Source of the DNA: Marsupella aquatica
Taxonomy: Eukaryota; Plantae; Marchantiophyta
Direction of reading: 5' to 3'
Assembly: GCA_973895155.1 (NCBI GenBank)
Contig: OZ316891.1
Span: 27,025,972-27,089,971, forward strand
Length of the DNA: 64,000 nucleotides
The position numbers and the translations under genes were made by a program. Below are positions 18,237 through 62,500 of this stretch, in pieces (the first letter of the stretch is position 1; every line of letters begins with the position of its first letter). Below the pieces are notes generated by a model. That model made no database searches. It was not told where the DNA came from and was given only the letters and a program-made list of their open reading frames with translations.

Positions 18237-18259
18237 GTTCGCGAGGACGCTTCACACTT

Positions 18260-18270: not shown

Positions 18271-18272
18271 TA

Positions 18273-36825: not shown

Positions 36826-39800
36826 GGCCTTATTAGTTCTTTTGGAGGTGATCGCCAAGCAGGTAGTTGTTTTGACTTCTACTAGTTGTCGTGACATATA
36901 GTATCGTAGCCATAGTATATCGAAAACATACAAGTCACCGGCAATGCATATGTGCAAGATGCTAGCAACCAACATCCTTAGAAAAAGTCCAATCACATTC
37001 ACAAGTGCCAAGAAAAAGCAACTGAGGTGGTATGTACATAGTGGAGGTGTAAACCTCTATATATAAAAGGCGTAAGAGAAACAAGCGTACTGAAATCGAA
37101 TCGAAACCGGCGAGATGCCAAGATCGGCCGGGAGCATCTAACGAATCACTGTGTGAATCCCGTGTACGGAACCGACGAGCACTGTCTAAGCTCTGTCAAC
37201 AGCGATTCAAGAAGAACTGAAAAACGGCAAAGAAAAACATGCCCTAAGTAGGTCCGGGTCCAGGCATCACACTAACAAACACTTTGCTTCAAGAACGGCC
37301 CAGACTCGCTACAAGAACATGACACTAACTCAAGTAGTACACTAGCCCTAACTACATACCTAGCGGGCATGCGAGGGACATGCCAATGTGCACAAGAGGC
37401 ACTATCCCTCGGCATGACATAGTGACACTTTCTTGACACCTTACTTGGCACCACTAGAAGAAACCGAGCCATTCTGAGACCCAGCCTTACATGACTTGTG
37501 TGAGACCTTTGAAAATAAGTGACTCCAAGGTTTAGGGTGTCATCTTTGTTACATCTTCTTGACTCACTTTTGGTGAAGTTCTGGGAAGTCATGTATTTAA
37601 CTATTGGGAAAGTTGCTTCTGTAACTGAGTTAAGGCAAGTATATTGAAGTTATATAAGTGACCATGACTTACATGATTTCCTTGCCCAATACATATGATT
37701 TTGGATCCATCATATTAATCACATTATGTCATGCAATTATATATAGTTACCTCCCTTTGCTTTAACCATCACTGAGTTGCTCTTTATTGTTCCCCTGTAA
37801 GAAAGTATACATGACATTTTTACCCTAATTGAAGTTTAGGTAAGTAGGGCAAATTTGTGATTCTAGCTAGACAAGAACCAACCAAATTTAAGTTAACATT
37901 CATGTACACGGCCGCAACTGAGTTCAAAAAGGTGTGAAAATTTGTGCCATGCCCCCAAAAATAATGATGCACCCTAAACCCTAATACTCTACATACATAG
38001 TTACCTTAAAAAAGTCACCACAACCAATTAGTGGTACTTGTCACATACTGCTCACACACATATTAAAACTCACTTCATCCACTAACTCATTTTAAAAATT
38101 TGCTCTGCATATATACCCCATAATTAGCCAATATCAAATGGAACCCCCTTCATATGGGAATATTGAAGGGCCCAATTTAGGACCTCTTTTTCCTTAAGTG
38201 CACAATGCAATGCCGTTGCATCAATTTCTCTATCGGAAGCCCTCTTCCAATGAACCATGTTGCGCAATTGCAAGTTGATACCAAAACTTTTGACTGCCAA
38301 AAGCTTTTGTGGAGGGACTTGGAGAAAGAGAGAGTGCGCCCGCAAAGTGAGAGTCTTGTTGTTTCATGAGCGGGAAAGTTTTCACACACTAGTAGAAACC
38401 GGGGCAATTTATATGTCAAGGCTAGGGGGTGGCTGGGTTTTCACTAAAGGGGGTTTAGGGGGGGTTTGATGTCAAGGGTCGGGGGTTGCATGTTAAGGGG
38501 ATGGGGGTTTAGGGACCATTGGATCGTCGGCATCCATCCCCCCCGGTCCATTCTTCATCCATTTAACCCTCTTTTGCCAATGACTCCAAATGTCCAATGG
38601 GTTTTCAGAGGGTTTATGCTTGAGGAGGGTGAGTTTAAGGGTAGGTGTTGTTTTTTGCCATCTGGGTGACTTAGGATATTTATCTAACCCAATGACTATA
38701 CCCAAAATACCCAACTAAAAGCCCCCCCCCCAAAAAAAATGCATGCACCCTTGGTCTTAGTTACCGTTTAATCCTAACTGTGAACTTACGTCTAAATGTG
38801 TTAGGTGCTTGCAGAATGCCTATGAACGAGTCCTTCCAGTCGACTCAATGTTTAGGGTAAACGGATTTTGTAAAGGAAAATTGCACAAAGTGTCGACGGC
38901 TACCACTAGGGTTTTCCTTCACGTTTCTGCAAGGGAATCCAAGGCCAAACACTTTGCGCCCGATAATGCACTTTTCCTCAGTTGCTCTCGACTCTTGCAC
39001 CTGATCGCACTCAGTCAATACATTTAGCGCTTTTGGAGGTGGGATTTCATGTCATTGCGTAGGGCTTGGAGCTTCGACCTTTGCTATATGACCCATTGTC
39101 GACTGCAATCTCACTATAGGGTTTAGGTGGGCCCTAAATCTTACATTCGTCTTTCCTGTGGTGACAACGCGGGTGCTAAGGTGTATAGGAGCAAGGTTGT
39201 TGGGAGGTTTATCGCGGATGACTGGCGATTGGTGAGGCCTATTTGCATTCATCTCCACTATCATTGGGTACCCGAGATACAACGATCGACCTTCTATACA
39301 GAGGCGAGGAAGTGACGAGAACCTACAACTCTTTGCGGGAATGCGTGGTCTTCTGCTTACCTGATTGCCCTCATGCTTGACTGTAAATACATTAGTAAAG
39401 TTTTGCTTTGGCTCAACTTTGGTCTTTTTTGGCCTTGCGTGACTGCGCTCACTTCTCTCGGTTTCCAGTGTGTAGTTGGCTAAAGACCTGGATGTCATGC
39501 TGTGAGCGCAAGCTGCTAGTAGTTGTCCATAGCTTGGGGAAAGCGGTGGGGACTGAGGCCACAAAGGAGTTTGACCTGCGCTTTTTTTTCTTTGCAGCAA
39601 GAGCGAGAGTGAGACGAGTTGCAAATTGAGTTTCATTGAGCTGCTGCCCTGGGCTTGGCGGAGGTCCTACACTCTTGTGTCGCTCACTTGTTCAGCTCGG
39701 GGTTCAGCTGCGGTGGGAGCGGGCTTTTGGTAGTGACCTGTTCAGTTGCAGTGGGAGCTGACAACTTTGGTGGCTGTGGTGTTGAGCTTCTGAGGAGGGC

Positions 39801-42618
39801 AAGCAACTGCGTGATGTGCCCTTGAGTGAATGTCTCTTGGAGGAGCTGCGAAGTGGTGAAAGGGGAAGGAGGTGAGCTCGGGCCTGGAAGCAATGTGCTT
39901 CTCCAACATTTTTGCACAATGCAATGCTGCTCAATCGTTTATCCTTCCTCTAAAGCTGAGTGTGATGCATCGACCTTTGACGAGAGTATCTGCATTACAG
40001 TTTGCTACATACGGCTGCTCTCTGTGTGGCAATCGCCAATAGCTAGCGCAATGGAGGGTTTGACGTCAACTTTGAGTCATTGATCAGTGCACACTACATC
40101 GCTCTCCCTTTGCTAAACCCTTTCTTTTGGCTTGGTTCTTGGTGCCTTTGGCATAGGAGCGACGTTATTGCTAATCAACTCCCGAATCAACTTTGGAGGT
40201 GCGGGTTAGAAGGGGTTGGAGAGAGGAGGTCCAAACCGAGAATGCCCTTCACCGTCAATGGTTTCTACTAGTCCCGGCCATGCAGCTGAAAGTGCGCTTC
40301 TTTCAGGTGTCGTAGCATTCTGCCAGCCGGGTGCTTGGACTGCAGAGAAGAGCAGCCACAGTCATTCAGTTCTTCTCCTAGCTCAGCTGCGCATTGTCAA
40401 CCATCGAGCGCTGCTGCGCGCTAGCTGTGAACCCCAAGAGGAGCTGCGACAAGGAGGAGATGCAACCAAGAGGAGATGCGACCAAGAGAAGCTGCTGCAT
40501 CCCACATTGAGTTGGACATTGAGGTAGGGACGTGAGCTACGCACTTTCAACCATCAAGCAACCACCAAGCTCGGCAGCGCTCTGGGATTTGTTGGCCACA
40601 ACAGACAAAGCGGAAGACAAAGGTGAGTGTTCGTGCACCGTTAGAGTAACCGCAAGTACTCTATTACATGCCTCGTTGTTCTCTATTACATGCCTTGTTC
40701 TCCCGCCCACTGTTTCCTGCGATTTTCTTTCTTCCATAAGAGAATGGTGATTTCTTCTTCTATCAAACAAAACCCCACCCAACCACCACACAAGAACGTG
40801 GGGTGCGCGCTTCTTAATCCTCCTCAAACTGGCCCATTGTTCATTGAAACCCCACATATTACCCACCGGCACCAAGGGTCCAGTCCCAACCCGTCTTCCG
40901 CTCCCCACCATCTTCACTCTCTCGCGCATCTATCTCCTGAACGGCGTCGCTCTCCCTTAGACGCAGAATGCTCCGCTGTGATATTGCCTCCAACTTTTCT
41001 AGTGCAATCTAGGCAATTAGACTGCTTTTGCGAAAACTGCCCTTCTTAAAAGTGAGCAATACTAATAAGCCCCGGGGGTGGAGCGTTTGTTACGATGGCC
41101 GTGGACCTACCGTGGGCTATGGTAGAACACTCTATTGTCTATGATGATTCTGAATCTGCTTGAACTGCGAGTGGATGTGCTTTAAGGCAAACTTGTCGGA
41201 GAAATTAGAATGGGGGGACGGAGCTGTCAGTGCTTAGGTTGTGGCATTTTTGAGATTGTCAAGAGTAATCTGTGATCTCATTTCTAAATGGTTTGAGCTC
41301 CTCTGATGTGCATAGGAATCGGGCTGAGGAAAGCTTTTGGGAGCTATCATCGGAACTAGCTTTCGATCTATTTCTGCTACTTTTGAATTGGTACTTGGGA
41401 AGGCTTTGTATCGTTAAGCACTACAAGATTCACAGGCCAGACCTGCTTGCTAGTATGAGGGGCTTTGAAGGAATGTGTGGCCAGGGCTGATTAAGTATGG
41501 ATTAATTTTGCATTGCCTGAGATACTGAAACTGCCACCCGCTTTGTTTCAATGCCTTTGATATTAATTGTTAATATCTCAAGAGGGTCGTCAACTAAGCT
41601 GAAAGGAGTCAAAGCTAACTACAAGCTAGCAAATACAGAGAATGCTCCCAAGTCGAGTCAGGAGGAAGTTACTAAAACTAGACCTTCACAACTCTCGAAA
41701 CTGGAAAGTGAAATTCAGCGTGAGACACGTAGTTGAAGGCCACAAGGATAACTATATGGCCACGCTGTCCCCCATTCAAGTCCAAAGTCCTCTTCAGATT
41801 GTCTGAACTCCTATTGAATGTATTGAATAATTATTTCATCACAGAAATTTTCAGAACAAACACGAAAGCACCAGGGGGCTGAGGATTGGATATTGAGGCT
41901 GAAGACATTGAGGTCATAAACTAGGTGTGGTTCGGGTGACAATGTTAGCAACTGATGCTTCTTCAGGGGAACTTCCCATGTGCAGTTTATCCACACATGA
42001 TTGACTTTGGTTCTTGCTATTTTTCTTTTGGTGTACTCTTGAGTTTGATGTCACTCTATCCTTTCCTGTAGCCTCGAAATAGGAACACACCTGCTTAGTG
42101 GTCCCCAATCGCCCAATGATTTATAATGACTGTGTCTAGGTGATGTATGCATTGCGTGTTCATTCCAGAAGAATGAATATGTACACTTTGCACAAACCTG
42201 GACAGATTTTGAATGTTATTTATCTGAGTTTCTGTTTGTGAGCTCTAACTTGGAGCCTTAACATTTGTGTTTCTGTGGGGCTGAGCAGAGTTTGTTCCGT
42301 CTAGAAGCTGCTGTACTGAAGTGATCAGCCTCCGGCTTGGAGGTGAATCTTCAATTTTTTGTGGATTCGAGTGACTTCTGTCCAGCTGAGTTTTGCTTTG
42401 TCGGGACGATTGTGTTTGGCTAAGATGCTAGATTGTGGCTTGTCTTCTTGCTTCCAGCTTGTGTATTTTCAATTAATAGAAGTTGGGAACGAAGTGATAA
42501 TTGAATTTCCTTATATTAAGCATCTTCACCTAGAAACTCAATACATAAACTCCAGGATTCCCTCGGGACATAAAATGAGCCAAATTGTCTCAAAATTGGG
42601 AACTTGCACCCGCACTAC

Positions 42619-42961
42619 TCAAACAATTGTGTTGGGCTTGGTGGCCTTGTAAGTCTTCTTTAGCTTTCGCAATGGAGGTTGAATCTTGCAGTACGTCAAG
42701 GGGAACTTGATCTTTGAATCATGGAACTGCTTGGTACTTTCTCGCTTGCACAGAGAGACAGGGACTGTCGTAGTCTTCATGATCTGGATGCAAGGGAACC
42801 GAACTCTATGACAAGAAGCCATCTCATCATACATCTGCTCTGCAGCTCCGTTTCTTGTGGTATCACAATATTCCTTGTACATGTTGTGATAACCTGTACG
42901 ACTCTGATACGTGGACCCAGATACCGAAGTTCTTAATTGTGGTGGGCTTCTTTTCGAAGAT
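42619..42961 (-). pseudogene. RPL18A: Captured last exon of 60S ribosomal protein L18a (eL20), frameshifted
   Basis: [15 protein letters not shown] / [57 protein letters not shown]. Preceded by a CAG splice acceptor. Confidence 0.92.
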
Positions 42962-43969
42962 CTGGTAGACACATTATTCAGCATTTGCTAACTTCGAAAC
43001 TAGAAGGGTAACACATTAAACAACAGAGAAACTCACAACATCCTCCTTTGGTCCTTCAGAGTCTGTACTTTGATTCTGAAGTTTGACTGAGTTTTTGTTT
43101 ACTAAAAGAATGTGACTGTGTAAGAGTTCCATTTGGCAGTGGATTGGTTGAAGCACTTCATGCTAGTGTGTTGTCCACAGCTCTTCAACTAGCTTTCGTC
43201 TTCCTTGTCTTTCACCACTTACGATGACATCAATTCAGCTAAGACCATAGAAGGTTCCAAAGCATCTAACTTGTAAAATCGCATTCTGTTACATCAAGGA
43301 CTAAGGTGTTGGGTGCCAAAGGAGACAGCACAACAAACACGCTGAAAAGACTTCAGGACTGGGTTCAACAAGGTAGTGAAGGTGCTTAGAGCCATAGTAA
43401 GTATGCATTCTGTATCTTTCTCTGTTGATGTGAGCTTGTGCATAATGGGAGTTGTAGTTGGCAAGAGTTCCAAATATGAATAGATCCAGAAGTATGTGAT
43501 CATGTACTTGCTCTATAAAGTTCTGAAGATATAAGCATTTTCTGTTAGACCAGGCAACTTGGGAGTTGGTAAGTGTCACCTGCATCTGAGGGGCTACACC
43601 GGGGCATCAGTGGAGGTTCACTTGCACAACACGACAACCAGTGAATTTTCTCTCTACTGCAACCTGCAAGGTGAGACTTTCGGTCTTTCTGGATGAAAAA
43701 ACAGGAGTTTAATATGATTGATATACATGTCCGTCGAGAATATGGGTTTATCACCAAGCTCTTTGTCTTAGGAAACTCATAAACTCAGAATCAAATATGT
43801 ACTATGCACGTTTCATGCTATGTGTATACTATGACCTGTAGTTGGAACCAAGACAATGAGTGGGAACTGATTAGTTTAGGTGGTTGTTGTTGGCGAGGCA
43901 AGTCGACCTCCTGCTCACCTTGCTCATCAAAGGACGTGAACAGAGGACATCACAACGAAAGCAACACTT

Positions 43970-44419
43970 ATGGTGAGGACCCGCAACGCTGAACATGTGC
44001 GACTTGCACGCAAGGCAGAGATGTTGCGCCTTGAGTATGTCAGACTTGGGATCCTTCCAGCCCAGTCTGCATGGTACTTTGAGTACCCTGTTGTTTCCAG
44101 GAACAACTACAGTCGGCCTCTACCTGCTTCAGTACCCTTCCCGACATCCTTGGTATTTGTGTCTCTTGTACATGACCCGCCACAAATTAGGTGCCAAGGG
44201 TGTGTACACAGTTGCCAATATGACTGTCCTGCCTGTAGGGCTTCTGGCCCAGAATTGGATGACCGTTCTCTTGGATACCGATTTTTGCACAGAGCACAAT
44301 GTATCATCTGGAACCACTCGCCATCCTGCAGTGTGCCTGGTGATGTCACTTGTCCTGCCCTCCCAGACCCCACCACCGGTGACTTTGGTGTCTACACATG
44401 TTTGGATCACATGCTCTAG
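43970..44419 (+). CDS. Small Cys/His-rich protein of unknown function (CACTA cargo)
   Basis: ATG-started 149-aa ORF with CxxCxHxCxxxCxxC and further His/Cys pairs. It sits in a GC-richer island and is co-oriented with the other cargo ORFs. Confidence 0.45.
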   Translation: MVRTRNAEHVRLARKAEMLRLEYVRLGILPAQSAWYFEYPVVSRNNYSRPLPASVPFPTSLVFVSLVHDPPQIRCQGCVHSCQYDCPACRASGPELDDRSLGYRFLHRAQCIIWNHSPSCSVPGDVTCPALPDPTTGDFGVYTCLDHML

Positions 44420-45034
44420 AGGACCACTTGTCACACCGCATGCACAGACCAGATACCATTGACCTATAGCTTAACACTCTGACTTCAACACAGAGGATAT
44501 TTACTTAAAATTTTGATGTATGAGCAATTTTGGGTCCAGGGTTTAGGGTCAACAGTACATAACTTATATCCTATTATGCCTGCACTAAGCAAAATATCCT
44601 AATTTAAGAGGCTAGCAAACTCGCATAAAAGTCTCTATTGAAAGACTGCTTTCATGACTGCTTTAACCTGGTGAACATTGCAACGTTCAATGAATTAATG
44701 GGCCATGTGATAATATGAAAAATGATTTATGCCTCACTTATTTGTCTCAGCCACTATCATAACCTATTTAGGATGTATAAATTTCAACCCTTATGACACT
44801 GCTTCATACCAATCCTCTTCGAAGAATGCCTGTTTTACATGTCACAACTATTGTATGTGATTCAAATGCATGAAATGTTGTTGCAGATCTCCTTTGGTGA
44901 ATCATAGCCACAATTAAAATTGCGGTGTTGGTGGAGAAATTGTATTAGGGGATCAGTTTTGTGTGTGGGCTCAACATACCAAAAGTATGTGTGCTCTGCA
45001 TCCTTGTGTGGCCATTCCAATTCATTGCAGTAGC

Positions 45035-45178
45035 AAATGCCTTTGTACCTTAAATGCTAAATATATTTTACTTTCTGTGCAGTCTGCTAAATTGTAGAGT
45101 CTATCTAAATGCCTTTGTACCTTAAATGCTAAATATATTTTACTTTCTGTACAGTCTGCTAAATTGTAGAGTCTATCT
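45035..45178 (+). repeat. Tandem duplication of a 72-bp unit just upstream of the PHD ORF
   Basis: AAATGCCTTTGTACC...GTAGAGTCTATCT occurs twice with one mismatch. Confidence 0.92.
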
Positions 45179-45189
45179 CATGCGCAGGC

Positions 45190-45870
45190 ATGGCACGGCC
45201 TAAAATTCAAGCCAAAAAGCGTGTGACAGAGGTGAGAAACACAGGTGTACTTGGGGCAGATGCTACTAACTTCTCTGCAAGTCAGATTTTCCAGAAGGCA
45301 GCTCATTGTTGTGCCATTTGTGACGATGGTGGGGGCCTGGTCATTTGTGAGGGCCCTTGCATGAGGCATTTCCACCTCAACCCGGAGTCTGACCTTGCTG
45401 CAGAAAACAACTGTCCAGGGGTGGGCCTCCCGTCAACACACCAGGGAGACTGGATGTGCACTGATTGTTTGGAGAAGCAGGCTAAGTGTGCACAGTGTGG
45501 GAAGTTGGGGTCCTATGAGGGCTCTGTTAATGCTGCAGCAAATGTTAGGAAATGTCCAGACCGTTTTTGTGTGAGATTTTTCTGTTTTGAGTGTTTGCCT
45601 GCTCATGCCACAGCTTGCCCACTTCATAGGTGCAAGGCATGTGGTGAGCATGATGATGACTACTGGACTGACATAGTCCACTGTGCTAGGTGTCCCACTA
45701 TGTGGCACTATCATTGCCTGAAAGATCATCAAGCAGAGGGTTATGCTTGTGACAGAGAAATCTATGATCACTCTGCACATGGTGTTGATCGATGGATATT
45801 TTATTGTCATCGCCATGCCATTGATCCTACCTCGCGCACTCCTGTGAGAGATCACATATCTTGGCTGTGA
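45190..45870 (+). CDS. EDM2-like tandem PHD-finger protein (stand-alone cassette, CACTA cargo)
   Basis: CAICDDGG..CEGPCMRHFH..C..CTDC, CAQCGKLGS..C...C...C..C, CPLHRCKAC..CARCPTMWHYHC and YCHRHAID...TPVRDH match the PHD region of plant EDM2 as I recall it. Confidence 0.85.
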   Translation: MARPKIQAKKRVTEVRNTGVLGADATNFSASQIFQKAAHCCAICDDGGGLVICEGPCMRHFHLNPESDLAAENNCPGVGLPSTHQGDWMCTDCLEKQAKCAQCGKLGSYEGSVNAAANVRKCPDRFCVRFFCFECLPAHATACPLHRCKACGEHDDDYWTDIVHCARCPTMWHYHCLKDHQAEGYACDREIYDHSAHGVDRWIFYCHRHAIDPTSRTPVRDHISWL

Positions 45871-46462
45871 AGCTGAACATTGTACATGCACAGTGCACCT
45901 GATGTGGATGTACTATTTTTTGAGATTGCAGAGATTCCAATTTTGAAAAGGAGTTGGGTAGGCGAGTTTATATAGGCAGCACTTATCTTGTGCTCTGGCG
46001 TCAGTGGTTGGGTACATGCCTATACAAACTTATCCTTACAAGCCTTCTTGGAAGTATTTAGGCTGAGTGGTCATTTTCATAAACACTTTCATCAGACTGC
46101 TAAATTAAAACAGGACTTCTAAGTTGTAAGCGTATAAATTATCAGGCATGCAATTAATCAAATTGCCCTATAAGTTTGTCATTGAATGTATCCTCCTTTA
46201 CAACAAAATATGTATGTGCCATGACAAGTTGGTTGCACTTCATTTCACCACGGATATGGATTTTGTAGTATATATTCAAACAATGTCCTGCATCCGTGCA
46301 GGTGCCTAGTACATATTGTTCACATATCCCTTGTACCTATCAAAATCGGACCTGAGCACCAGTGGGCCAGATCAACTCAAAAAGCAGGAATTTTGTTGTC
46401 CTTGTATTGTCAGGTGAACCCATTCTTCCAAAATTCACTGTCATCACGTAGAGTGTGTGTAC

Positions 46463-47335
46463 ATGGAGCCTGGTAAACGTAGAAAGTGTGACCACCCAGC
46501 AGTGTTTACAGGGGTCAGAGCGATTTTGGTCCATGGCCAGCATGGGTTGACCAAAGTGCATTGGCCAACTGTACAGAAACGATTCTCTGAGCTCCATGGC
46601 ACTGTAGTTCAGGACATCACTCCAGAGACTACACATGTTGTTGCAGGGACATGGCTATCAGTGATAAAGAAGTGGTCATGGTCCTACATGAATTCTGCAA
46701 TTACTAAGCAAGGCCTAAAAGTAGTTGAGGCCTCTTGGATCACAGATTCCATAGCACATAAGATTGTACAGGATACTGAGCAATATGAGTTGTGGGAGGA
46801 TGAAGAAGCTTCTGCATCAGCTTGGGCTGAACAAGAAGTCTGGGAAGCAAAGGCACGGCTTGCTGATCTCCAATATGGACCTGTACTCAACAAAGGACAG
46901 AGCTCTACAAGGCTGAAGTGTATGTTGGCTGAGGAGACAAAGCAACCAACCCCCATTCTGAAAGGGCTGAGCATGGTATTTGTGGAGGCAGGAATTGGAG
47001 AGGTTAAGTGCAAAGTGTACAAGTCCACAGTGCTTGACCTAGGTGGGACAGTGGAGGAGAATATAACAGAGGACACCACTCATGTCATTACTAAGTCATA
47101 TCCCAAAGCCTGTCGCAAGTTTGGGAAGGGAGACATTCGCTTTTATGTCATGTCCCATAATGTGTTTGTGGTTTCATATGCTTGGCTTGTGGAATCAGTA
47201 GCAGCTGGGAAGCGTCAAAACCCAATGGACTATGATCTTTTTGAGGCCTGGCCACGGAAGGGTCAGGATCCTTACAGAGAGGACTATGAGACAACAAGTG
47301 AGGAATGGGTCATTAGCGATTCTGAATCAGAGTGA
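46463..47335 (+). CDS. Tandem BRCT-domain protein (CACTA cargo)
   Basis: Two internal repeats with BRCT hallmarks: VFTGV..HGTVVQDITPETTHVV..VVEASWITDSI and ILKGL..LGGTVEENITEDTTHVI..VVSYAWLVESV. First ATG at 46463. Confidence 0.85.
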   Translation: MEPGKRRKCDHPAVFTGVRAILVHGQHGLTKVHWPTVQKRFSELHGTVVQDITPETTHVVAGTWLSVIKKWSWSYMNSAITKQGLKVVEASWITDSIAHKIVQDTEQYELWEDEEASASAWAEQEVWEAKARLADLQYGPVLNKGQSSTRLKCMLAEETKQPTPILKGLSMVFVEAGIGEVKCKVYKSTVLDLGGTVEENITEDTTHVITKSYPKACRKFGKGDIRFYVMSHNVFVVSYAWLVESVAAGKRQNPMDYDLFEAWPRKGQDPYREDYETTSEEWVISDSESE

Positions 47336-47909
47336 GGAGTAGTAGCATCAGTTTGGACACAAGTTTTTTTGTATAAATCAGATCATTGAAATAAATGTGA
47401 TCTTTGAACTAATGTACCTTGTTATGGTTGGTGGCAGTTGGGCTTATTTTACTATTGGCGGATTGTTGTTTCCTGCTGCCTGGGGGTGTCACTGTAAACG
47501 TACATGCAGAGGCGGTACATTTGAGGACAGCGGAGGAGGTGGTGACACCCTCCAACATTTAGGAATTTTGTGTCATTCACTTGACAATAGGTACACTACT
47601 TGCGAACCTGTTTTTTTCTTTTGGGGTGGTTTAGGGTTTGTGAGAATTTAGTACACGTTATGTTAACTCTTTTGGCAGATACAGTCAGGGATATATGGAA
47701 CACAAATACCACCATTAGGCATCCTTGTTCACTGCTGTCCATGACTGCAGAGCTCCCAGCCTGTTACAATGCACCCTGGTCACCACCCTCCCCAGACCCA
47801 GCCCAGGGCACAGGCACTGCCTTTGCATCATCCCACAAGGATATCACGCCATGATAATAAGCTTTGGCAGCGTGAAAGGTTACGAACCAGACTTTCAGGA
47901 GCCAGTAGG

Positions 47910-50900
47910 ATGAGATGTCCTTGTGCAATCTGCCAAGGATCCCGTACCAGGGGTCTGAATGAGGTTTGGCGGCATATCGCGGTTCATGGAAGAGATCCAC
48001 GACATCGAGTTTGGAATGATCCTGCAGAGGAAGATTCTTCCGACGAGGAGTGGAGGTTAGAATTTGATGCTGCCAATGCTGCAAGACGGGCAAGTGAGGT
48101 TCTGCCTGGTGCATTTGAAAATGTTGTAGCTGGTGGTCTGTGGGTTGTCAGCTCTCCAACGGGATGGTGCTCAGGCAGCACCACGTGACGAAGGAATTCA
48201 TGTGGAAGAGATGGTGAGAGACATCTTCCAAGACTTGGATGCATTTCATGATGGGCTGGACAATGAAGAGGATACGGCTGCAGATGCAAGTGTGCCCCCT
48301 GTCGAAGAGCCTCTTGATGAGTTTGAGATAGGGCAGGAAACCCCTGGGCATGATGGGATGTTTGGCTCTCCCCTGCAAATACAGGAAGGCAGGAAGTCTT
48401 TGTACCCCGGTAGCAAATGTTCTAAACTGGGATTTGTCATCATGTTCCTGAACATTTGCGGCAACCACAATGTCCCCAACATTTTGGTTTCTGAGTTGTT
48501 GGCATTCTTGCGAACAACTGTGCTACCAGATGGTAATATTTTGCCCAAGAACATGTACGAGGCAAAAAGATGCATATCTAATCTTGGATTGAACTATGAT
48601 TCGATCCATGCCTGTCCTGATGGGCATGTTCTTTTCAGAAAGGAGTATAAAGAATCGTTGACATGCCCTAAGTGTGGGAAGCATAGGTATCGGAACTCAG
48701 GAAAGTCTATGGTTCCCGCCAAGGTACTTCGTCATTTTCCACTCATTCCCAGACTTCAACGGATGTTCAGAAGCCGTGCCATCTCGGAGATGATGACTTG
48801 GGCAACTGACAAGAAAAGTGATGATGGGCTACAACGACATGCTGCAGATTCAAGGCAATGGAAACTCATAGATGAGATGTATCCCGAATTTGCTGCTGAG
48901 CCGAGGAATGTCAGACTTGGGCTGTCATTGGATGGGGTAAACCCATTTGGAGACAAGAACAACAAATTTTCGTGCTGGCCTGTAACTATTTTGAATTATA
49001 ACCTTCCTCCTTGGATGACTACAAAGCGATTTTTTGTTCTGATGGTCCTACTGATACCAGGGCCAGACAGTGCTGTATCTGCCAACATAGATGTGTTTCT
49101 GGCTCCCCTAGTGGAGGAATTGAGAAAGCTTTGGGAGGAAGGAGTTCTCACATATGATGTCCTACAGAGGCTTGGGAGGTTAAACCCATTCATCCTTAGA
49201 GCCATTGTCATTCTGACTATAGCTGACTACCCAGCCCATGGGATGATATCAGGCCAAACAACAAAAGGATATTGTGCTTGTACTACTTGTGGGCGCAATG
49301 TCACCAGTGAGTACTCCAGAGCCCTGCAGAAAGTGATATACATGGGCCATCGTTGTTTTTTGAAGGCAGATCACCCTTACAGAGAAAGACAAGCACTGAT
49401 TGCACACTTTGGCAATGAGATTGAGCAACGTGGACCCCCGGCACGAGTGACCAAAGAGGAGATCAGGCAGTGGGGAGCACTGAGGGATGACTATATCAAA
49501 CGAGGGGGCAGGGAAGATGGAGTGAGTGATCCAATAAAGCGATATGGTGTAAAAAGACTGAGCATATTGGACTTGGAGCTCAAGTACTGGAGGGTAAGCC
49601 TCTTGGAGTTGATGCTAATTGGGATACATGTTTTGGTTCAGAGCATGTGCATTCATTTCGAAGAGAGAGACTAAACTTGAGGCATTTCCTGACGCTTTTG
49701 CATTGCAACGATGCAGGAGTTTGAGCCAAGCAAACATAACATTGATGTTATGCACATTGAAAAGAATATTTGTGAGAGTCTACTCAGATTCTTGTGTGGA
49801 GAGAAAGACACTGGTTCAGTGAGATTGGATCTTGAACAGAGGGGAATGAAACCCCATCTTTGGTTGAGGCCACATGCCCACAGAGCTGATGTGCTCTTGA
49901 AGTACCAAGCGCCCTATGTTCTGACAGACACAGAGTGGGAACTATTTGTGCAGAGGTTGAGTTCTTTGAAGGTTCCTTCAAACTATGGCAGTGCTTTCAA
50001 GAAGCATATCATGAATAGAAAGCTTGGTAGTATGAAAAGCCATGACTACCATATGTTGATGCAACAGGTGTTGCCTTTATGCCTGAGGGGCCTGTTGCAG
50101 AAGCCTGTTCGTACTGTGATCATGCGACTCAGTGATGTGTTTCGTCGTATTTGTGTGAAGGTTTGGGATGAAACACACTTCCCACAACTGACAGAAGATA
50201 TCGCTCAGGTGCTGTGTGACCTGGAGATTTATTTTCCTCCCGCATTTTTTGATGTCATGACCCACCTACTTGTCCATGTTGTGGAAGAGCTACACCAATT
50301 TGGGCCTGTGAGTGCTCGTTGGTTGTACCCTTTGGAACGGTACATGAAGCTACTCAAAGGTCACGTGAGAACATATTACAAACCTGAAGCAAGCATGGCT
50401 AAAGGTTACATCAAGGATGAGACTCTGGGATTTCTGACCGAATACATAGCACAATATGAGCATGTGAAGACCAGGGTGTGGAATTCTGATGAGGAGGAAG
50501 GGGTGATAGGTGAAGTACTGGAAGGGGCTGCAACCACAAAGAACCTGACCATATCTATGAGAGACTTGGCACATGACTTTGTATTGCACAACACTGTGGT
50601 GATGGAACCCTAGATACAGTGAGTGCATACATGTGCTATAATCCAGTTCATGAGCTTAAATGTTGTGTTCGTGTGGTTTTCTCCTTCAACCTGTTCATGT
50701 TTACCCAAGCTAATGCTGTGTGGTTGTTTGTTTAGGGAGTATGAGTCATTGAAGGCGGCCCATCCCACTGCAGGAACAACTTTTCCAGGTTTCATGGAGT
50801 GGATCAGAGTGGCAATTAGAGAGCATCACGAGACCCACCCAGACATGGATGCAGATGTTTACCTACTGTCTAATGCCCCTAGCCTGAAAGTGAAGACTTA

Positions 50901-51501
50901 CAAACGGATGAGAGCATATGGGAATCACTTCCGAGTGAAGGATGGTGACAGTGCCTACAGGGTGACGAATGACTGCGGGCTCATCACTGTATTTGAGCAA
51001 CAGAGCCACAATCACGACAGGGCCTGGATGGAGATGGGATATGTGGGAGAATTAGTTGACATATGGGCTTTGGACTATGGGGCGGTGTCCAGTCCTGTGA
51101 TTCTTATGAAAGGTTCATGGGTGCGGCAGGATTGGCTTGGTAAGAGGGCTACCATGAAGAGAGACAACGACGGTTTCTTGCTGGCCAATTTCAGAGGAAA
51201 ATTGCCCGAATGGTCTGAGCCATTTGTGTTTCCTAGTCAGGTGGAGCAAGCTTTCTTCCTGGATGTGGAAGACTCCCCAGGTTGGCGTGTAGTGTGTCAT
51301 AAACAGGCCAGGCAACGTCAGATGGAAGGATCAAACCTTGAGTTTCATTTACACTCTCATAGTGCCTTTGATCGTCGGCGTTCAGACCAAGTGCCTGTAG
51401 TTCATGATAGCGGGGACTTCATTCCTGTGACAAGGGTAGATGCATTTGCTGAAGGAGGCGAATTCAGAGATGCAGATGCCAACAGTGTGCCTGTGCCATG
51501 A
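47910..51501 (+). CDS. CACTA transposase TnpD/Tnp2 (transposase-associated domain, Transposase_21, DUF4218, DUF4216), multi-exon, with one apparent nonsense codon
   Basis: MRCPCAIC..HIAVHG, IHACPDGHVLF..CPKCG, RLGLSLDGVNPF, YNLPPW, DYPAHG, IDVMHIEKNI, MKSHDYH, YPLERYM and EPFVFPSQVEQAFF motifs. Introns at about 49594-49717 and 50619-50735. TAG at 50611. Exon 1 boundary uncertain. Confidence 0.9.
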
Positions 51502-51657
51502 GTAATGTGAATTGTTTGCATGGACATTAGTGAGGGGAAGGATGTGTAATAAAGTAATTCTGAAGCAACACAGATGTATGGATGGATGCCTGGTGATTGT
51601 GGTTGCATTGTGTTATACGGGGTGACCATAGATGACATGTTTTTGTGGTCCAGTAGG

Positions 51658-54600
51658 ATGGAACAGAGTGACACAGAGATGTGTGAGTATGAAAGGAAAG
51701 CTATGGAACAACGAGCATACGTGAAAGCCAAAATCGCAGAACTGGATCTGGAAAAGGATGTGGCTGAATTGTAAGGGAACGATTCTCAACTACACCCCTC
51801 CGCTGAGTTTGTGTGACATGAATAGTTCAATGTGGCACTGAAATTGTGACTGTATTCTCATATTGGAATGTCGCAAAGCCACAGCATTTTCAAAGAAACA
51901 AAAGGAGTACGCAAGAAGGGTGACCAGCACTATCTCTGGGCCTGTGCGTCGGAGTGACAGGTTGAGCAAGAAGGTCGTACCTACAATGGCAGAATGTGGA
52001 GATGACATTGATGCTGCACAGGTGGGTGCAGACACTAGACAAGAAGATGCAGATGATGAGTATTTTCCAGAGGAAATAGATGAGGATGGGGGTTATGAAG
52101 ATGAATACATTGCAGAGCAGCCCCAAAAGAAACATGTAAGTAGTTTTCCCAACAAGGTTTTGAGTTAAAAACTCGTGTTTAGAGGTTTCATATGTTCAGT
52201 ACTACACATATGTACCTTGCTTAGTTCCTGACATTGTAGTTGGTGATGTGATGCAGCGTCCTGCCAGTTCTGTTTTGCCTTCGAAGCCTGTGCATGCACC
52301 ATACCAGCAGGGGGGGCTGACCTCTGATCAAGGTTGGCGAGGTGGTAGTAGTGGTAGATCCCAGGCTGGTGCCCAATACTATGGCAGGGGGCAAGCTCTA
52401 GGTTATGCCCGTGGTAGAGGCAGAGCAGGTCCAAACCCACAATCTCGTGGGTATGGACGTCCACCTCAACCATGGGGATGTGAGTATATATCTATATGCC
52501 AGTTCTTTGTGAAGGCATGGCACTCCTGAATTTCAGACTGCATATCAATTTTTGACATTGTTTGGGATGTATTGGATTCAGACAACATGAAATTCTGTCC
52601 ACCTGCCATTGCATGCAGATTCTGCCCAACCTGATTGGGCAAATGCTAGTAATGATCAGTTCCAATGTCCACAAGGACAGACATGGGTTGAACCAGGTTG
52701 GGAGGATGGTGGTGGGTCGTGGAATGAACAAGGTTGGGAAGGTGGTGAAGGTAATTGGCAGGGATATCAAAATTCAGTACCTACAAACGCTGGAAGAGGA
52801 GCAAGTAATGTCTGATCTTGTCAGCAATGGAAGAACTCATTATATGTGGAGTCCATTCACGTGGGGGGGACTCTGCACATGTATAATGATAGAAAATGTA
52901 TGTGTGCAGGTTGGACAGTCGAACCATCGACTCAAGTATTCACTAATGCCCCTATGCAGATGCAGCACGGAAGGGGGACAGGTATGTCGGTGAATGTTCA
53001 GTTGTTTTCCTACAGTTTGTACTTAGTTTTCAGTACATATGTTTGCACACACATACCTAGAAAGTGACATCATCCGGCCCCTGTACTAGGCTGGACAGGT
53101 GGTCCAGGGTCGCAACAATTTCAGAGTGTAGTCCCTGCACAGGCATCTACAGGCAGAGCTACAGGTATGTATGTTTGAAGAATTTTTCTTGAAGTGAAGC
53201 ATTGAATGTTGCCGTCATCCATTCTGCTATATGTAGTTCTCAAGCATGAATGGCATTGTATTTTCCCAGGTGGCTTCAGAACCCCAGGTAGGGTGAATGA
53301 AGGGGTGGCCAATACAACGCCCAGTACTACCGAGAGCAGTGCACGAGGGGAGGTGACAAAGAAAGGGAACGTAAAGTTGAATGAGAGACAATGGGTGGAT
53401 GCTGAGTGTCCTCGCAAGAACCGATGGCATGCTGATTTGAAAGCTGAAGTATTGCGTTGGTTAGATGTGAGTGTTATTAATTTTAAAAAACAGCATCCAA
53501 AAGATTGGAAGACTGTATGTGAAAATGTTGCTGCCAAATGGAATTATGTGGGCAGTGATGATGGCGTGGACATAGGTTGCCTAGAGAGTACAGCAGGTAA
53601 AATTATCAAGCAAGAGAGGTGGAGAATGCATAAGGCTTGGAAGGAAGGTGGGGAGAAGCCAGATATGCCTCCACCAGCCAGTTGTGATGATAAAGTGTGG
53701 GCAAGGTTAGTAGCTTATTTTGTAATAGATGCTTCAAAAAAGAAGAGTTCACAGATGACCGAGGCCAGGTTGAGTGTTCAGAACCCTAATCTGACAAGAA
53801 GGACCGGCACTGCACCGACAGCTAAACGTTTGGTAAGAATGAATGGCCTAGCTATGTAATTTATGCTACACTATGTACTATTTTTTAGTGTAAACCCATA
53901 CATGTAAACTTTGTTTTTTAGTGTACGTTCCCTGAATATTGATCGATAACTTGTGTTTGCCATGCATGTGCAGAAAGCCCAATTGGGGCAAAGCCCTTCA
54001 AAAGAAGAGTTGAGGGCTGAAATTGTGAACACCCGGGCTCAAGAGGGTGCATCTGAATCCTCCAAGCATGTAAGTTATATGAGTTCTGATTGGTAATTGA
54101 ATGACCTGCGTTGAATTTCAGGTGTACACTGTATATAACATTGATTGTGCATATATTGCCCAACATTTCATATGGAGTGATTGAACCTATACCCCTGTGT
54201 CATGTAGGGAGGTGGATCTTCACTTACAGAGATAAGTGGTCGTTTGAAGGCTGTCGAAACATGTCTTCCAGAGATCAATGAACGTTTGAATTCATTGACT
54301 GACTTGTTCCATGTGAACTTCAAGACATTAATGGAAGCTGTTGTGTCGGTGAGAGATAAAATTGATTCCAATTCTGCAGGAGTTCCACCATCACCACTTG
54401 AGGTGGCAAAGTCGATGCACTCTTCTGGCATGCCAACGACATGTAGGCTTGAAGGTAAGGCCTTTACAACTGTGTGGGATATGATTATTAAATGTATAGT
54501 TTGAATTGACATTGTTTGTTGAATGTGTTATTTTCAGTAACATATATTGTGGTTGTTGTGTCCATAGAGAATAAGATAGGTGCTACAGAGAAGAAGTATG

Positions 54601-55364
54601 AGAACCTGGCAAATACTCGCTGTAATTTAGAGGAAACAAAGTTGCAGTCTGTACAAGCAACTTGTTTGACAGAGGGCAGTCAACCATGTTTGGATGAGGA
54701 TGACATTGGCAAGGGAGTGGATGATATCAATGTTGGGGCAAATGAGGATATCAACAAGCATGACAATGATACCATTGAGCCAGATTCATGCTATGTAGAT
54801 CTTGACTCCATTGCAGAGATAAATGATTTGCAGAATGTATCATTCTCAATGACAGGTGTGCCTCTTGTTGAGATAAATCCAACCAAAGAGTTAGTTGGTA
54901 TGACACTCCCAGGTGATGAACCTGCTACTGAGACAGTCCTAATAGAGGAACCTACTGAGCCTAGCTTCACTACTGTGAAGAGAGGAAGCATGCGCACACG
55001 AAGCAAGTCTGCTGGTGGGAGCAGAGCCACATCAAAGGTTTCATACAAACCTCCAAGAACAGTGCTGGCAGAAAGATCTAAGGTGGAAGTGGGGAAAGCA
55101 CCTAATGCTGAGGGACAAAGTGGCTTGTTAGCTGTTGATGAGAGTGGAACACGAGTAGGATTTGCCAGAGTGCAGGTTGGTTCCACAACGTTCCATGGCA
55201 AGAGGATTCCCCCAGGTTATTCAGTAGTGTTAGTCACATTACTAGTGAAACCTAAAGCTGTCCTTCCCATTCCAAACACAAATGATGATCCTCCTCAAAA
55301 GACACTTGGAGATGCTGCAGGTTCTTTGGTATTATGGCCAAGCAAGTTCATAGAGGATCCATAA
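51658..55364 (+). CDS. TnpA-like / Ptta-En/Spm second gene of the CACTA element, multi-exon
   Basis: Coding blocks with GT-AG boundaries. 53206..53859 resembles Transposase_24 (W..LV.YF...KKKS.QM..AR). The C-terminal FHGKRIP..V.V..LPIP..TLGDAAGSLVLWP resembles the Tnp1/En/Spm C-terminal domain. Exon structure not fully resolved. Confidence 0.72.
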
Positions 55365-55864
55365 CAATGTCATGCCATTATTTGTTTGTAGTGTGAGTCA
55401 TGTTATGTAGATTTTAGATGTCAAGAAGCAGTACAAGAATCATGTCCTCTTGGAGATTCATAGTATCATGCATGTGCTTTCAGTTATCTCATCCTACAGT
55501 CATCAATTATGAGTTCCTGTTTTGTCTAAATTACATTGATCACATTGTAAACTATTCCATTGGAATTCAAATGATCTTCATTTTTTAGCAAGATTGTGAT
55601 TGTGTTTAATTCTTATGAATGTTTTATGTAGGATCTGCTTATATGATGCTTTGTTTCATGTGGATGTCATTCATGCTATGTTCATTTCTTGTATTCAATG
55701 TGTTATATTTCTAAAGTTAGAACATCAGGTTTCTATGTATTGTAATGTCGAGTGCTCTCTCTCCTTATGAACTATCCCTCTGTGTTCATTAGTCATGGTT
55801 ATAACTTGCATGTGAACCTTATTAGTTATAAACATGAGTATATAGAGTCCCAAATGGTTCTGTT

Positions 55865-56219
55865 GTGTGACGCGGGCCAGGGTCTCCATTGGTCTCTCCT
55901 GTGACACTAAATAGTCACACGCTAGTCGTTGTTGAATGCGGGTAAGTCATGTATGTGACTTACGATGTGACTCGCTGAAGTCATATTGCAGTCACGTCGA
56001 AACAAGGCTAGACTCCACAATAAAGTCACAGATCAGTCACAAATGGGTATCAAGCAAGTTGCAAAGCCCAGTATCAATAGTGACTTCCATTTTTTGGTCT
56101 CAACTTTTGCAACTCCAAGGGTCACAGCGTGGGTCAAGTCACGTTGAGTCACAATGAAGTCACATGAGCCAAAATGAGTCATATATTGCGGTCTCAGTTC
56201 ACCTCGGATTCTTCTAGTG
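55865..56219. repeat. 3' subterminal repeats and TIR of the CACTA element
   Basis: Dense GTCAC/GTGAC/AGTCA motifs in both orientations, mirrored at 37452..37700. Confidence 0.75.
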
Positions 56220-56643
56220 CACACATCTACTTTTTGAGAGGTTGCTTATTACTATTGGAGTTGAGCAATTCAAGAAGGAGAGTGAGACACTTCAAGCTTC
56301 ATCAGTCGGAGTTAGCAAAAGGGTTCACTCCACCACCCACAACATGCATCACCAAGACCACCCTAGTGGAGTAGACGTTGACAATATCAGATTTACCAAG
56401 GATGACTTCTCCCACTTTTGTTGCCTCCACTTCATACATTTCATCGACTAACTTCATCGGTGATGCTCAAAGACTAGCTAGTGTGGTTAGTTTCAACCAA
56501 TATTTGGTATACAAGGCTACTAGGCTTTTGAGTTGTACGGTCCCACCATAGTTACTTGCTTGTATTTTTAGTTTGATTTTTGACCCTCGCTCTACTCCAC
56601 TTCCCCGTGTTCCATCGTTTGTACCTTCACCCCAGCCAGATTT

Positions 56644-57294: not shown

Positions 57295-58590
57295 AAGGTT
57301 TTAATAATTTTGGCCCCACGAAAACCCCGTGGCGGAGGAAACACACAAAACCAACAATCCGAGAATTTCAGCCCCCAGAAAGACAATGAACAGCCAGCAA
57401 AAGCCCAGAGCCCGAAGGTAGAACAGAGGAAACAACAATACTGGCCACGACCCGCCTCTGCCAGGCCGCAGCCCCCTACACCAATTACCTATCCGCATTG
57501 TCACCACCCCACACTTCCTACCCCGATGTAATCCATACATCTCTACCTTTCAGCCATTCAATTCTTTCCCTGTTGATCATTTCCTTGGCCCTCATAAATC
57601 GTGTTTTCCTGTTACAAGCATGCAATGCCAGCAGTATTGCAGAGACGTGGTCAGCTGCCTCTGAAAGGATGAATCGGAAGTCCAACTTTTTGCTCCCTTC
57701 CGCCTGGAACATGTGCTCATTGCGCCCAAGACACAATGCCCAAAGCATCTGAAAGAGCATAATCATCATTACAATCTTGCTATGGTGCCTTCCTATCGCC
57801 AGATCTACCAGTCCCATCAGACCCCCGGGGTAGCCTACAAATATTCCACCAAATCCTTGTGAACACAGAGCCCAACATTTTTGTGCATGAGTACAGTCCA
57901 TAAATAGATGCGGGATGGTCTCCAGTATCCCCGGCTTGCACTCTCCATTACCTTTGCCTATCTTTACTGCCCTCACTCCAGTGAACAATCCTGATGCTAT
58001 TACTCTCCACATAAAGGTCCTTGCTCTCATTGACATTCCTGAACCCCATATTCCAGCCCAACTCTCATTCCATTCGGGCTCCGTTTTACTGATCCCCCAA
58101 GTCCTGTTCAAGTTTGGCTTGTCCTCAACCACGTGTCAAAGTAATTGATAAGCCCTCCTATTGGGGATCTTAAAACACTTCATTGGGGCAGGATTGTCAG
58201 CCCAACACCAGCATCGAGGGCCCGGTTCAAACCCCCACTCACATTGTGGAATTGAATACAATGCCTCCATGAATCTTCTACCAAGAATCTGATGTTCAGG
58301 TGTGAATCCCCTCAAATGCTCCCATCTCCCTTCCAGTCCTTGCCATTCCCTACTTGCACCTTGCCAAAGATCCTATATACACCTGATGCCCAGTCTCCCA
58401 CAGAGCACTGTAGTAGCCGCCATATCCTCATTGCTCCATGATTGAAACCCTTTCAGGCATCTGATCACATCCCCAACTGACCACCGACCCGGTATCTTAT
58501 CAGTTGGACAAAAGATCAAATTAGCTTCTATAACTTTGATCTCTTTGGCTCCTATTCTTTCTTCTACTATTGATATTGAACCCACCTGTG
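57295..58590 (-). mobile_element. 5'-truncated L1 LINE (3' end, zf-RVT region)
   Basis: ORF 57518..58132 has WAGIW..RTFMWRV..ETIPHLFMDC..CW. ORF 58373..58585 (IPGRWSVGDVI) resembles L1 ORF 919..1440. Confidence 0.85.
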
Positions 58591-59584: not shown

Positions 59585-62500
59585 TGTGTTAAGTGTTATA
59601 AGGGCTAAAACCCTAACCCTACTTACCCTAGAATGTAGGGGAACGGAGGTTACATAACTGCCGATATACCATGTACTACATAGGGAGAAGTTTACTCTCC
59701 CACAAGGTAATGAAGGAAGTGAGCTTGCTGGTGTATGTGTGTCCATGGTTGATGCATAATACGTCATCAGCACGACTCTACATTTGGAGCACAACCTTTG
59801 ATTTAATTTTTCTTAGCAAATCGATTCAGTGAATCTATGTGCACATTTTGAACTATTGATTGAATTAAGACCTTTTGTATATGATTCGATTTACAACGAC
59901 AATTTCAAGGATCAGGAGCACAAGCATCTTTGGTCAATGCGAGGGAGTTCTTTTTCTCAACAATTTCTTTCCATCTGAATTTCTTAGACATCAAGGCCAT
60001 AACTGATTTACAGAATCCAGGCAGAACATAATTCACAAATTCCTGGATATAACTCAATTTGAGATCAAATTACCATAACTCCTATTACAATGAATTCTAT
60101 TGAGAAGCTTCAATTTAAGGCTCTAACTACTGATGGTGCCAATTATTTATCCTGGTCACTTGATATCGAAGCATATCTTTCATCAAAAGACCTACAGGAA
60201 GCTCTTTACACAGATGCAGGCCTAACAGTACCGCAGAAGGTGAGAGTATTAATCTTCATACGACATCACCTTGCCGAACCACTCAAGATTCAATACCTGA
60301 ATCAATTCAACCCCATAATTCTCTGGGAAGATCTAAAATCAAGGTTTGATCACATGCGCCTGGTCTCCCTGCCGGCCGCATGTCATGATTGGATCAATTT
60401 GCGTGTGCAGGACCACACTTCTATATCCAATTATAATGGAGAACTTTTCCGGATCACCTCTCAACTATCCATATGTGGCCACCCAGTCAACGACGCCGAA
60501 CAGATTGAAAGAACTCTATCCACTTTCAGTGTAGGAAACCTCATCCTTGCATCTCAATACAGAAACATGGGATTTACGAAATATTCAGAGCTGATAGCTC
60601 ATATGCTTCTTGCTGAGAAGCATCAATTACTCCTCTTGGAAAATGCCAAATCTCGCCCACCTGGGACAGCCGCACCCCCACCTAAACCTGAAATTAATTT
60701 CAATAGACAGAATGACAGAATTAGAGGACGAGGTAGAGGAAATTTCAGGGGGAGGGGACAAAGAACATATAACCGAGGCACAAACCAAGAGAGGGGCAGA
60801 GGTTATGGCCAATTCCAGAGAGAAAACCAAGCATTCGGAAACTTTAATCAAGGACGAGGAGGACAACGAGGACGAGGAACTGCATATAGAGGCAGAGGCC
60901 ATGGAGGAGGCCGTGGAAGAGGATACAATAAGTGGGCAAGAGAACCCGAGAATCCTATTGAATGTTTTAGGTGTGGCACAAGAGGACACTTACAGAAAAA
61001 TTGCCGAACTCCTGCCCACCTAGTTAAACTCTACAAGCAACGCATGGAATTACCCAATAATGAAGCCCACGGTAACTACATGGAAATCATAGATAACATT
61101 GAGGGATATGCACCAGACCCAACAGCCCCCGAAGTCCATACTGCCAAATTAGGAGATAATCCCTCAATGCTGGACGATAATCACAATTGTATCGTTGATA
61201 GCGGTACATCTCATTCCATATTACGCCAAAAAGATTACTTCCTAAATATCACTCCATCCCACAGATCCATGACAACAATCACTGGTCCTAATCATATAGA
61301 GGAAGGTTTTGGTCCAGCACAAGTAAGATTACCCAAGGGCACAGTCCTCCACATAGAATCTGCAATTTATGCTCCACGGGCCACTCGAAACCTTATAAGT
61401 TTCAGTGACATACGCGCCAATAGACTTCATATTCACACAGATACTTGTGGAAACCGAGAAGTCTTACATATCCTGGAGAATACCAAATCAGGGAGATTAG
61501 TCCGAGAAATACTACCTTTATACCCCCCCGGACTATACATCACTCGGATCTATTCTTATTATGCTGCAAGTACTCCACTTACCTTAACACAGATATGGCA
61601 TAATCGCCTTGGACATCCTGGTACAACTATGTATCATAATATCCTAAAGGCTACCGTGGGCATACCTCAAGGTGTTCACCCTTCAGCCACCAGCAAACCA
61701 TGCATTGCATGTTCATAGGGAAAAATGATAACTCATCCAGCACCATCAAAGACAATACATAAGATCCCACAATTCTTGGAGAGGATCCAAGCAGATGTTT
61801 GTGGCCCAATAGACCCACCATCTGGCCCATTCAAATACTTCCTGGTTATCATTGATGCCTCCACCAAGTGGTCACAAGTCTCTCTGCTATCCACTCGAAA
61901 TCTAGTCTTCCTGAGGATATTATCACACATTTTGAAATTAAAACATCAGTTCCCAGAGAATCCAATTAAAGCAATCAGAGTTGATAACGCGGGGGAATTT
62001 ACCTCAAAAACCTTCGATACCTTCTGTGAAACAGCAGGCATCGATATTGAATACCCTTTTCCACATGTGCATTTTCAGAATGGTATTGCAGAATCTATAA
62101 TCAAAAGAATACAACTGGTGGCTAGACCCCTACTGATGCAGTCAAACTTACCAGCATTAGCTTGGGGTCATGCGGCTCTGCATGCAGCTGCCCTCATTCG
62201 ACTGAGACCATCATCATTTAATTCTCAGACCCCCCACTTCTTGGCATACGGGTTACCACCAGACATCACACACCTACGAATTTTTGGATGCCTGGTTCTT
62301 GTCCCTATTTTAGGTCCCAAGCAAACTACAATGGGACCCCAGAGGCAACGAGGCATCTATGTGGGATTTGACTCACACTCTATTATAAGATACTTGGAAC
62401 CCTCAACAACAGATGTTTTCAAAGCACGGTTCCAAGATTGCAATTTCTTTGAAGATGAATTTCCAACTCTGACAGAAGACCCAACAAGCAACGGAAAGGT

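Follow-up and report, generated by a model that had tools for sequence, protein, structure and literature searches.

The EDM2/ELP proteins carry an array of atypical PHD fingers whose last unit ends in His. EDM2 binds modified H3 tails, H3K9me2 among them, and associates with AIPP1 (EDM3) and ASI1 (IBM2). Arabidopsis EDM2, ASI1 and AIPP1 bind intronic heterochromatin and favour distal poly(A) sites (PMC7472560, PMC7529245, PMC11265718 and PMC10241880), and EDM2 together with ASI1 and AIPP1 suppresses the use of proximal poly(A) sites in heterochromatic transposable elements (TEs) (PMC7472560 and PMC10241880). COPIA4 transcripts are reduced in edm2 mutants, and Mu1 is repressed by both EDM2 and ELP1 (PMC3632883), so that EDM2 activity is not simply pro-TE. 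The same type of finger array is found as PHD1-3 in NSD1, NSD2 and NSD3, and the likeness between EDM2 and NSD1 fingers is already known (PMC3776765).

Transposons, for their part, take up host sequence, and capture by Pack-CACTA elements is well described (PMC13317346). For VANC, an accessory gene of the Mutator-like VANDAL elements, PMC13547354 proposes an origin of this kind, from captured host chromatin regulators, the MAIN-like proteins; VANC recognises specific sequences and attaches to non-coding DNA within its own element (PMC10398659). No report of a CACTA element with a gene of EDM2 type or of PHD fingers alone turned up in the full-text literature searched, a body of work with subscription papers and Repbase annotations mostly outside it, and the term 'PHD' has 0 occurrences in the main text of the review PMC13317346 and of the atlas PMC13547354.

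The locus described here lies in a 64,000-nucleotide stretch of Marsupella aquatica DNA (the window) and consists of a short open reading frame, the PHD ORF, within a CACTA element. It is likely a transposon accessory chromatin-reader gene of EDM2 type, with a mechanism that we infer. Like the EDM2/ELP proteins, its product is an array of atypical PHD fingers that closes with His in the last unit; with the grass EDM2 orthologues P0006 and L001 it shares the finger order, the zinc ligands and a TPxRDHI end, at about 30% identity over the module. In contrast to EDM2, it has 226 aa rather than about 1300, neither an RFD nor a methyltransferase-like domain, no coding introns, and a basic leader in place of the acidic run ahead of finger 1; it is also borne by a transposon. 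NSD1/2/3 provide the best PDB sequence matches, and the fold matches to NSD and PZP proteins are weak, but NSD scores are much lower than EDM2 scores, the PHD ORF is without SET and PWWP domains, and the NSD sequences examined are without the TPxRDHI end. Compared with VANC, which is likewise a transposon accessory gene with a proposed host chromatin origin, the superfamily is different, and the product is a predicted histone reader instead of a sequence-specific DNA binder; no Pfam match to VANC or to the plant mobile domain was obtained at E up to 1. The element resembles Pack-CACTA in holding a decayed host fragment, from ribosomal protein L18a, but whereas Pack-CACTA cargo is fragmentary and decaying, the PHD ORF is whole, in sense orientation and conserved at both ends.

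Inverted arms starting with CACTA, with CAC on each flank, define the element (Table 1), and together with a Transposase_21 domain they bear out the preliminary description, which had placed the ORF inside a transposon. In run X3, one contig passes directly from 37449 to 56222 with a single intervening letter, the pattern expected of an empty site or of a paralogous empty flank. Contigs cover 30 of 30 bins of the element in all four runs, from three organisms, and do so as hundreds to thousands of differing contigs, so the element is a repeated family; summed contig depth was not taken as its copy number, and the X1 single-contig depth just downstream of the PHD ORF is close to that in the transposase (1641 against 1554–1782), a weak hint only. 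All on the forward strand, the 149-aa Cys-rich ORF is followed by the PHD ORF, the twin-BRCT ORF, the Tnp2 gene and the TnpA-like exons, and short words are repeated up to 4 times near the ends of the element. The transposase of the window copy is damaged by a frame break at about 48130–48190 and a stop at 50611–50613, where contigs of all four runs have a different letter. The L18a fragment shows a 1-nt gap at 42914 in three of the four runs; its best PDB matches, presumably plant ribosomes, reach 140–165 bits, and the next group at most 83, which points to a plant host. It is passive cargo and serves as an internal control for decay inside the element.

Several features of the surroundings were also recorded. 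In X1 and X2, summed contig depth along the element peaks in the bin of the 149-aa Cys-rich ORF. The interval 38500–41200, where contig depth is low in X1, X2 and X3, is richer in GC and less depleted in CpG, and is probably variable captured sequence carried by a subset of copies; in the left subterminal region (37452–39000), the CHG observed/expected ratio is 0.5, against 1.1–1.3 in the coding body. Elsewhere in the window, a histone H1-like gene (25413–26168, reverse strand) was recognised by eye from its translation, as were, also by eye, a Gypsy-type element (9300–21500) with a repeated accessory ORF (9823–11355 and 19518–21137), a copia element (60063–63341) and LINE-like pieces (900–6000 and 57500–58100).

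Table 1. Features of the CACTA element and of the PHD ORF (positions in the window)
Feature	Positions	Strand	Basis
CACTA (En/Spm-type) transposon, 18,768 bp	37452..56219	+	inverted ends, 3-bp duplication, Tnp2 domains
Left terminal inverted repeat, starts CACTA; target duplication CAC 37449-37451	37452..37481	+	
Ribosomal protein L18a fragment, captured, antisense, truncated, frameshifted, intronless	42619..43000	-	Pfam, PDB matches
Cys-rich ORF, 149 aa	43970..44419	+	no Pfam match
72-bp near-perfect tandem duplication (45035-45178) upstream of PHD ATG, doubling an acceptor-like AG (45154, 45187)	45035..45187	+	
EDM2-type PHD-only ORF, 226 aa	45190..45870	+	ORF, Pfam, relatives, profile scores, alignment
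Basic N-terminal leader, aa 1-40	45190..45309	+	family alignment; pLDDT <50
Finger 1, aa 41-93	45310..45468	+	PF23011 E 4.6e-5
Finger 2 and zinc knuckle, aa 100-146	45487..45627	+	Pfam, alignment, ligand table
Finger 3, aa 148-209, and EDM2-type end signature YCxxHxI...TPxRDHI, aa 205-226	45631..45867	+	Pfam, alignment
Twin-BRCT ORF, intact, 290 aa, second accessory gene	46463..47335	+	PF00533 E 2e-13, two stretches
Tnp2/TnpD-type transposase gene with introns	47910..51501	+	PF02992 (Transposase_21) E 1e-69, DUF4218 E 2e-28, DUF4216
TnpA-like exons (weak)	53206..55364	+	PF03004 E 0.014, under cut-off
Right terminal inverted repeat; target duplication CAC 56220-56222	56190..56219	-	

The PHD ORF runs without a break from its ATG at 45190 to a TGA at 45868–45870, in agreement with the intact 226-aa frame first described, and no ATG ORF of its length or longer appeared in any of 200 shuffles of 37452–47900. 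The product contains 22 Cys and 16 His. Three NSD-type PHD models of Pfam match it consecutively (aa 39-93, 96-140 and 148-180), all under their curated cut-offs, and the finger 1 residues C41, C44, C53, C57, H62, C90 and C93 are invariant in all nine aligned rows. It had been described as made almost wholly of Cys/His fingers; this holds for aa 41-209, but the first 40 residues are the basic leader, a possible nuclear localisation signal. The C-terminal end then quoted also matches, although the true end runs four residues further: the C-terminus is YCHRHAIDPTSRTPVRDHISWL, the frame stops four residues past RDH, and the next ORF is that of the BRCT protein. Pfam found no catalytic, DNA-binding or RNA-binding domain in the product, and no SET or PWWP domain beside the array.

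A search at near-length returned five relatives (P0001–P0005) among 81 candidates, with identities of 81, 75, 53, 37 and 38%, lengths of 217–245 aa and query coverage of 97–100%. All six family members carry Met-Ala-Arg and then basic or comparable residues at the matching start or close to it, and share the DHISW end, at which five of the six terminate as DHISW[LI]; nearly all zinc ligands are kept in the five relatives. Two of these exceed Pfam cut-offs: PF23011 in P0003, and both PF00628 and PF23004 in P0004. Over nine rows (the six short proteins and three grass EDM2-type modules), 28 columns are invariant, mostly Cys or His. The stand-alone form, which had been noted at first, is conserved with similar ends. 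A single-sequence search for longer relatives gave none among 291 candidates, and a viral-contig scan with 42 pattern matches gave no relative.

Against a six-sequence profile, three of 2841 long candidates passed: the EDM2 orthologue P0006 from Zizania, with an N-terminal DNMT1-RFD-like domain and a methyltransferase-like domain, and two NSD proteins. P0006 was the best of the 2841 (76 bits, E 1e-15), while the NSD pair reached 38–39 bits; the P0006 model seems mis-spliced in finger 2, where about 55 aa of L001 are missing. A metagenome scan reduced 221 pattern matches to 11 loci (L001–L011). L001 is a full-length EDM2 of 1305 aa carrying TPVRDHIKFP, which includes the TPVRDH motif first named for EDM2, seven short EDM2-type transcripts (L002–L007 and L009) are close to it, and L008, L010 and L011, unrelated simple PHD proteins, were dropped; the L-series sequences of EDM2 type are called 'grass' here by their likeness to P0006. 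The profile gave 104.9 bits for L001, 105.6 for L004 and 90.7 for L003, against 37–39 for NSD and 45 for the best NSD2 entry of the PDB. Pairwise scores are 52–61 bits for EDM2-type modules versus 15–16 for NSD. The signature YCxxHxI...TPxRDHI was defined from P0006 and L001, and the TPxRDHI end that the family shares with both is absent in the two NSD sequences examined.

The EDM2-type assignment rests on these profile and pairwise scores and on the shared end signature, and by the same measures EDM2 appears as the closest long protein found to the family. The module's identity, first put forward by likeness to Arabidopsis EDM2, is therefore upheld (about 105 bits for EDM2, 37–45 for NSD). 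The comparison with NSD fingers proposed at the time came out divided: the scores favour EDM2, but the trees leave the ancestry without a supported link to EDM2 over NSD. In these trees (11–12 rows with long branches, built without the near-duplicate or unspliced L002, L005–L007 and L009, the second also without P0006), the family is split off at 92/98 and 94/94, and its stem measures about 2.7 changes per column. Since the RFD and the N6-adenine methyltransferase-like ELP domain (PMC7529245) are absent, the former also from the relatives of the PHD ORF, the product is not an EDM2 family member.

Gene structure agrees with a processed origin or with later loss. Retained-intron forms of the grass sequences place four introns within the module, with a further acceptor directly ahead of it, and the PHD ORF is collinear across all of these sites, as would fit either the uptake of a spliced copy or the loss of introns. 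Grass EDM2-type genes thus have at least four introns in a region where the PHD ORF has none. The ORF had been called intronless, which holds for the coding region but not for the whole gene, as a 5'-UTR intron is likely: the tandem duplication upstream of the ATG probably represents its end. Under a crude, hand-weighted scoring of 1311 AG sites, the AG at 45154 falls in the 99th percentile and the AG at 46413, upstream of BRCT, in the 100th; 45154 is separated from the PHD ATG by an in-frame stop. AATAAA occurs at 47390, after BRCT, and at 51548, after Tnp2. A single PHD-BRCT fusion protein was also considered and is unlikely, with five of six members stopping at DHISW[LI] and an in-frame stop between the BRCT acceptor and its ATG.

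Compared with EDM2, the module has been remodelled. Finger 2 is about 21 aa shorter, and a His is replaced by Cys at position 132. Aligned with AIRE PHD1, E54 (Asp in five of six members) corresponds to D312, and H39 (His or Gln in all six) to D297. In AIRE, D312 contacts H3R2 and D297 contacts unmethylated K4, and loss of D297 weakens H3 binding about 20- to 35-fold (PMC2261226). Two short grass proteins have Asp at the D297 position, and L001 has Ser, with Asp one place earlier. Because the K4-reading residue of AIRE is changed, the binding preference of EDM2 is not simply transferable to the product, and binding to H3 is plausible but probably altered. Among plant PHD fingers there are some that do not bind H3 (PMC9640981). 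A first fold model reached a pLDDT of 46.8, with no match at E 0.001; a second reached 64.6, with aa 1-47 below 50 and only PZP/NSD-type matches (best E 2e-4 at rmsd 12; best Z 4.1), and with models this weak the H3 pocket cannot be judged from structure. Overall, chromatin binding by the product is judged slightly more likely than not.

How such a protein might serve its element is suggested by the layout of the locus. In maize En/Spm, TnpA and TnpD are made from one transcript by splicing. If the present element is En/Spm-like, its distal genes would require read-through of about 10 kb of CpG-depleted and presumably methylated DNA, which is the task that EDM2 performs for host genes. In the proposed sequence of events, the module would have been captured long ago from an EDM2-type gene, probably by way of a spliced copy, and then remodelled. 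The PHD ORF would be expressed by splicing onto an upstream leader, its basic N-terminus would bring the protein into the nucleus, and there it would bind the H3 tail, retaining the acid that contacts R2 but with an altered K4 contact. Having no enzyme, DNA-binding or RNA-binding domain, the protein would be an adaptor that takes its specificity from a partner, and with that partner, either TnpA or host AIPP1/ASI1, it may act on the chromatin of its own element. Our overall reading, offered tentatively, is that of a CACTA accessory PHD gene that would aid a long transcript past internal poly(A) sites in silenced chromatin. A role in read-through or anti-silencing is the most likely one for the product, though still less likely than not. 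The roles first suggested for it, as a mimic, a decoy or a tether, are likewise hypotheses. The stronger version, in which a CACTA lineage domesticated the EDM2 reader module and recruits host ASI1-AIPP1 to silenced copies, gaining a full multi-gene transcript without losing heterochromatin, is unlikely.

The changed K4 contact beside a kept R2-contact acid would also fit a new specificity of another kind, in which the PHD protein tethers the TnpA/Tnp2 complex to particular nucleosomes and the BRCT protein handles break repair, so that the pair would serve integration instead of transcription. The RAG2 PHD finger and chromovirus chromodomains are precedents for chromatin tethering, and the twin-BRCT ORF, itself intact, is flanked by the PHD gene and the transposase, all in one orientation. 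No close relative of the BRCT ORF was found (atlas matches below 0.9). However, it resembles solved structures only weakly (best PDB E 0.006), adjacency by itself proves no partnership, and the choice of an EDM2-type finger is left unexplained. This function in transposition is rather unlikely.

Whether the element maintains the PHD ORF as a gene can be gauged from its record of substitutions and indels. No indel was listed within the PHD ORF in any of the four runs; 18 of 18 pieces among those listed of 110 carry no gap, with substitutions of up to about 13%, and listed indels resume just past the stop, at 45905 and 45921 (35 and 51 nt downstream). In run X7, from a fourth organism, 37 contigs match the PHD ORF on conserved patches, 27 of them less than 90% alike, as expected of an old repeated family; one X7 loose end has an in-frame stop when translated by eye. 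Among close copies, 26 listed differences (taken at a 30% share threshold, with changes private to the window copy included) comprise 9 synonymous and 17 non-synonymous changes, giving an omega of about 0.5–0.7 that is not significant (p 0.08–0.25); none of the 17 amino-acid changes alters a zinc ligand. The PHD ORF has a CpG observed/expected ratio of 0.25, compared with 0.37 for the transposase and 0.78 for the H1 gene, a depletion consistent with long residence in methylated DNA.

A mere passenger would be a short host EDM2-like gene, already PHD-only, that was picked up and multiplied, its conservation reflecting host history while the element copies drift. The contigs of P0001–P0005 are only 1.1–1.9 kb long, so the deep conservation could stem from host genes, and the omega of close copies does not differ significantly from 1. 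Grasses express EDM2-type transcripts that hold the PHD module alone, at equal profile score, some with a basic Met-Ala-Arg start and two of them beginning Met-Ala-Arg-Lys-Lys at the matching place; truncation therefore need not be the transposon's doing. This qualifies the earlier view that the transposon had co-opted the reader module alone: a PHD-only ORF does sit in the element, but the same form exists in grass transcripts. CACTA elements do take host sequence, as the L18a fragment and the Pack-CACTA precedent (PMC13317346) attest. The grass transcripts, unlike the PHD ORF, contain introns, are nearer to EDM2 (200–220 bits to L001, against 44–87 for the PHD ORF family), and have no element-protein match on their contigs. 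Within one and the same element, moreover, the PHD ORF is complete, keeps the sense orientation and has no listed indel even in diverged copies, whereas L18a is antisense, truncated and frameshifted; the PHD ORF is also without host introns and strongly depleted in CpG, and the divergence of the X7 contigs speaks for an old repeated family. Simple carriage is thus judged unlikely, and by its sequence record the PHD ORF is probably a maintained, selected element gene of EDM2 type.

Even a maintained reader need not act on its own element. A module without effector domains could be a dominant-negative decoy that competes for marks or partners with host EDM2/ELP or other readers and blunts silencing broadly, which the repression of Mu1 by EDM2 and ELP1 (PMC3632883) would accommodate. 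At about 30% identity to EDM2 and with a remodelled surface, close mimicry is doubtful, and a genome-wide effect would presumably be costly to the host, which makes a decoy quite improbable. Very unlikely, finally, is a source in an NSD-type or other gene with the same finger array, the EDM2 likeness being shared ancestry only: the NSD names of the matched Pfam models, the known likeness of EDM2 and NSD1 fingers (PMC3776765) and the unsupported tree would allow it, but the pairwise scores and the TPxRDHI end point to EDM2.

The product of the PHD ORF is a natural, compact version of the EDM2 finger array, a module for which a PDB sequence search found no solved structure, and it offers a direct way to test histone binding and the recruitment of AIPP1 and ASI1. 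If recruitment of ASI1-AIPP1 is true, anti-silencing would operate by transcript processing, and PHD and BRCT genes side by side would represent a wider chromatin and repair toolkit of these elements. Known counter-defence in plant transposons centres on sequence-specific DNA binders such as VANC. If the reading proposed here is true, this CACTA element would follow a different route, in which silencing marks are read rather than erased, by way of the host module for transcribing TE heterochromatin.
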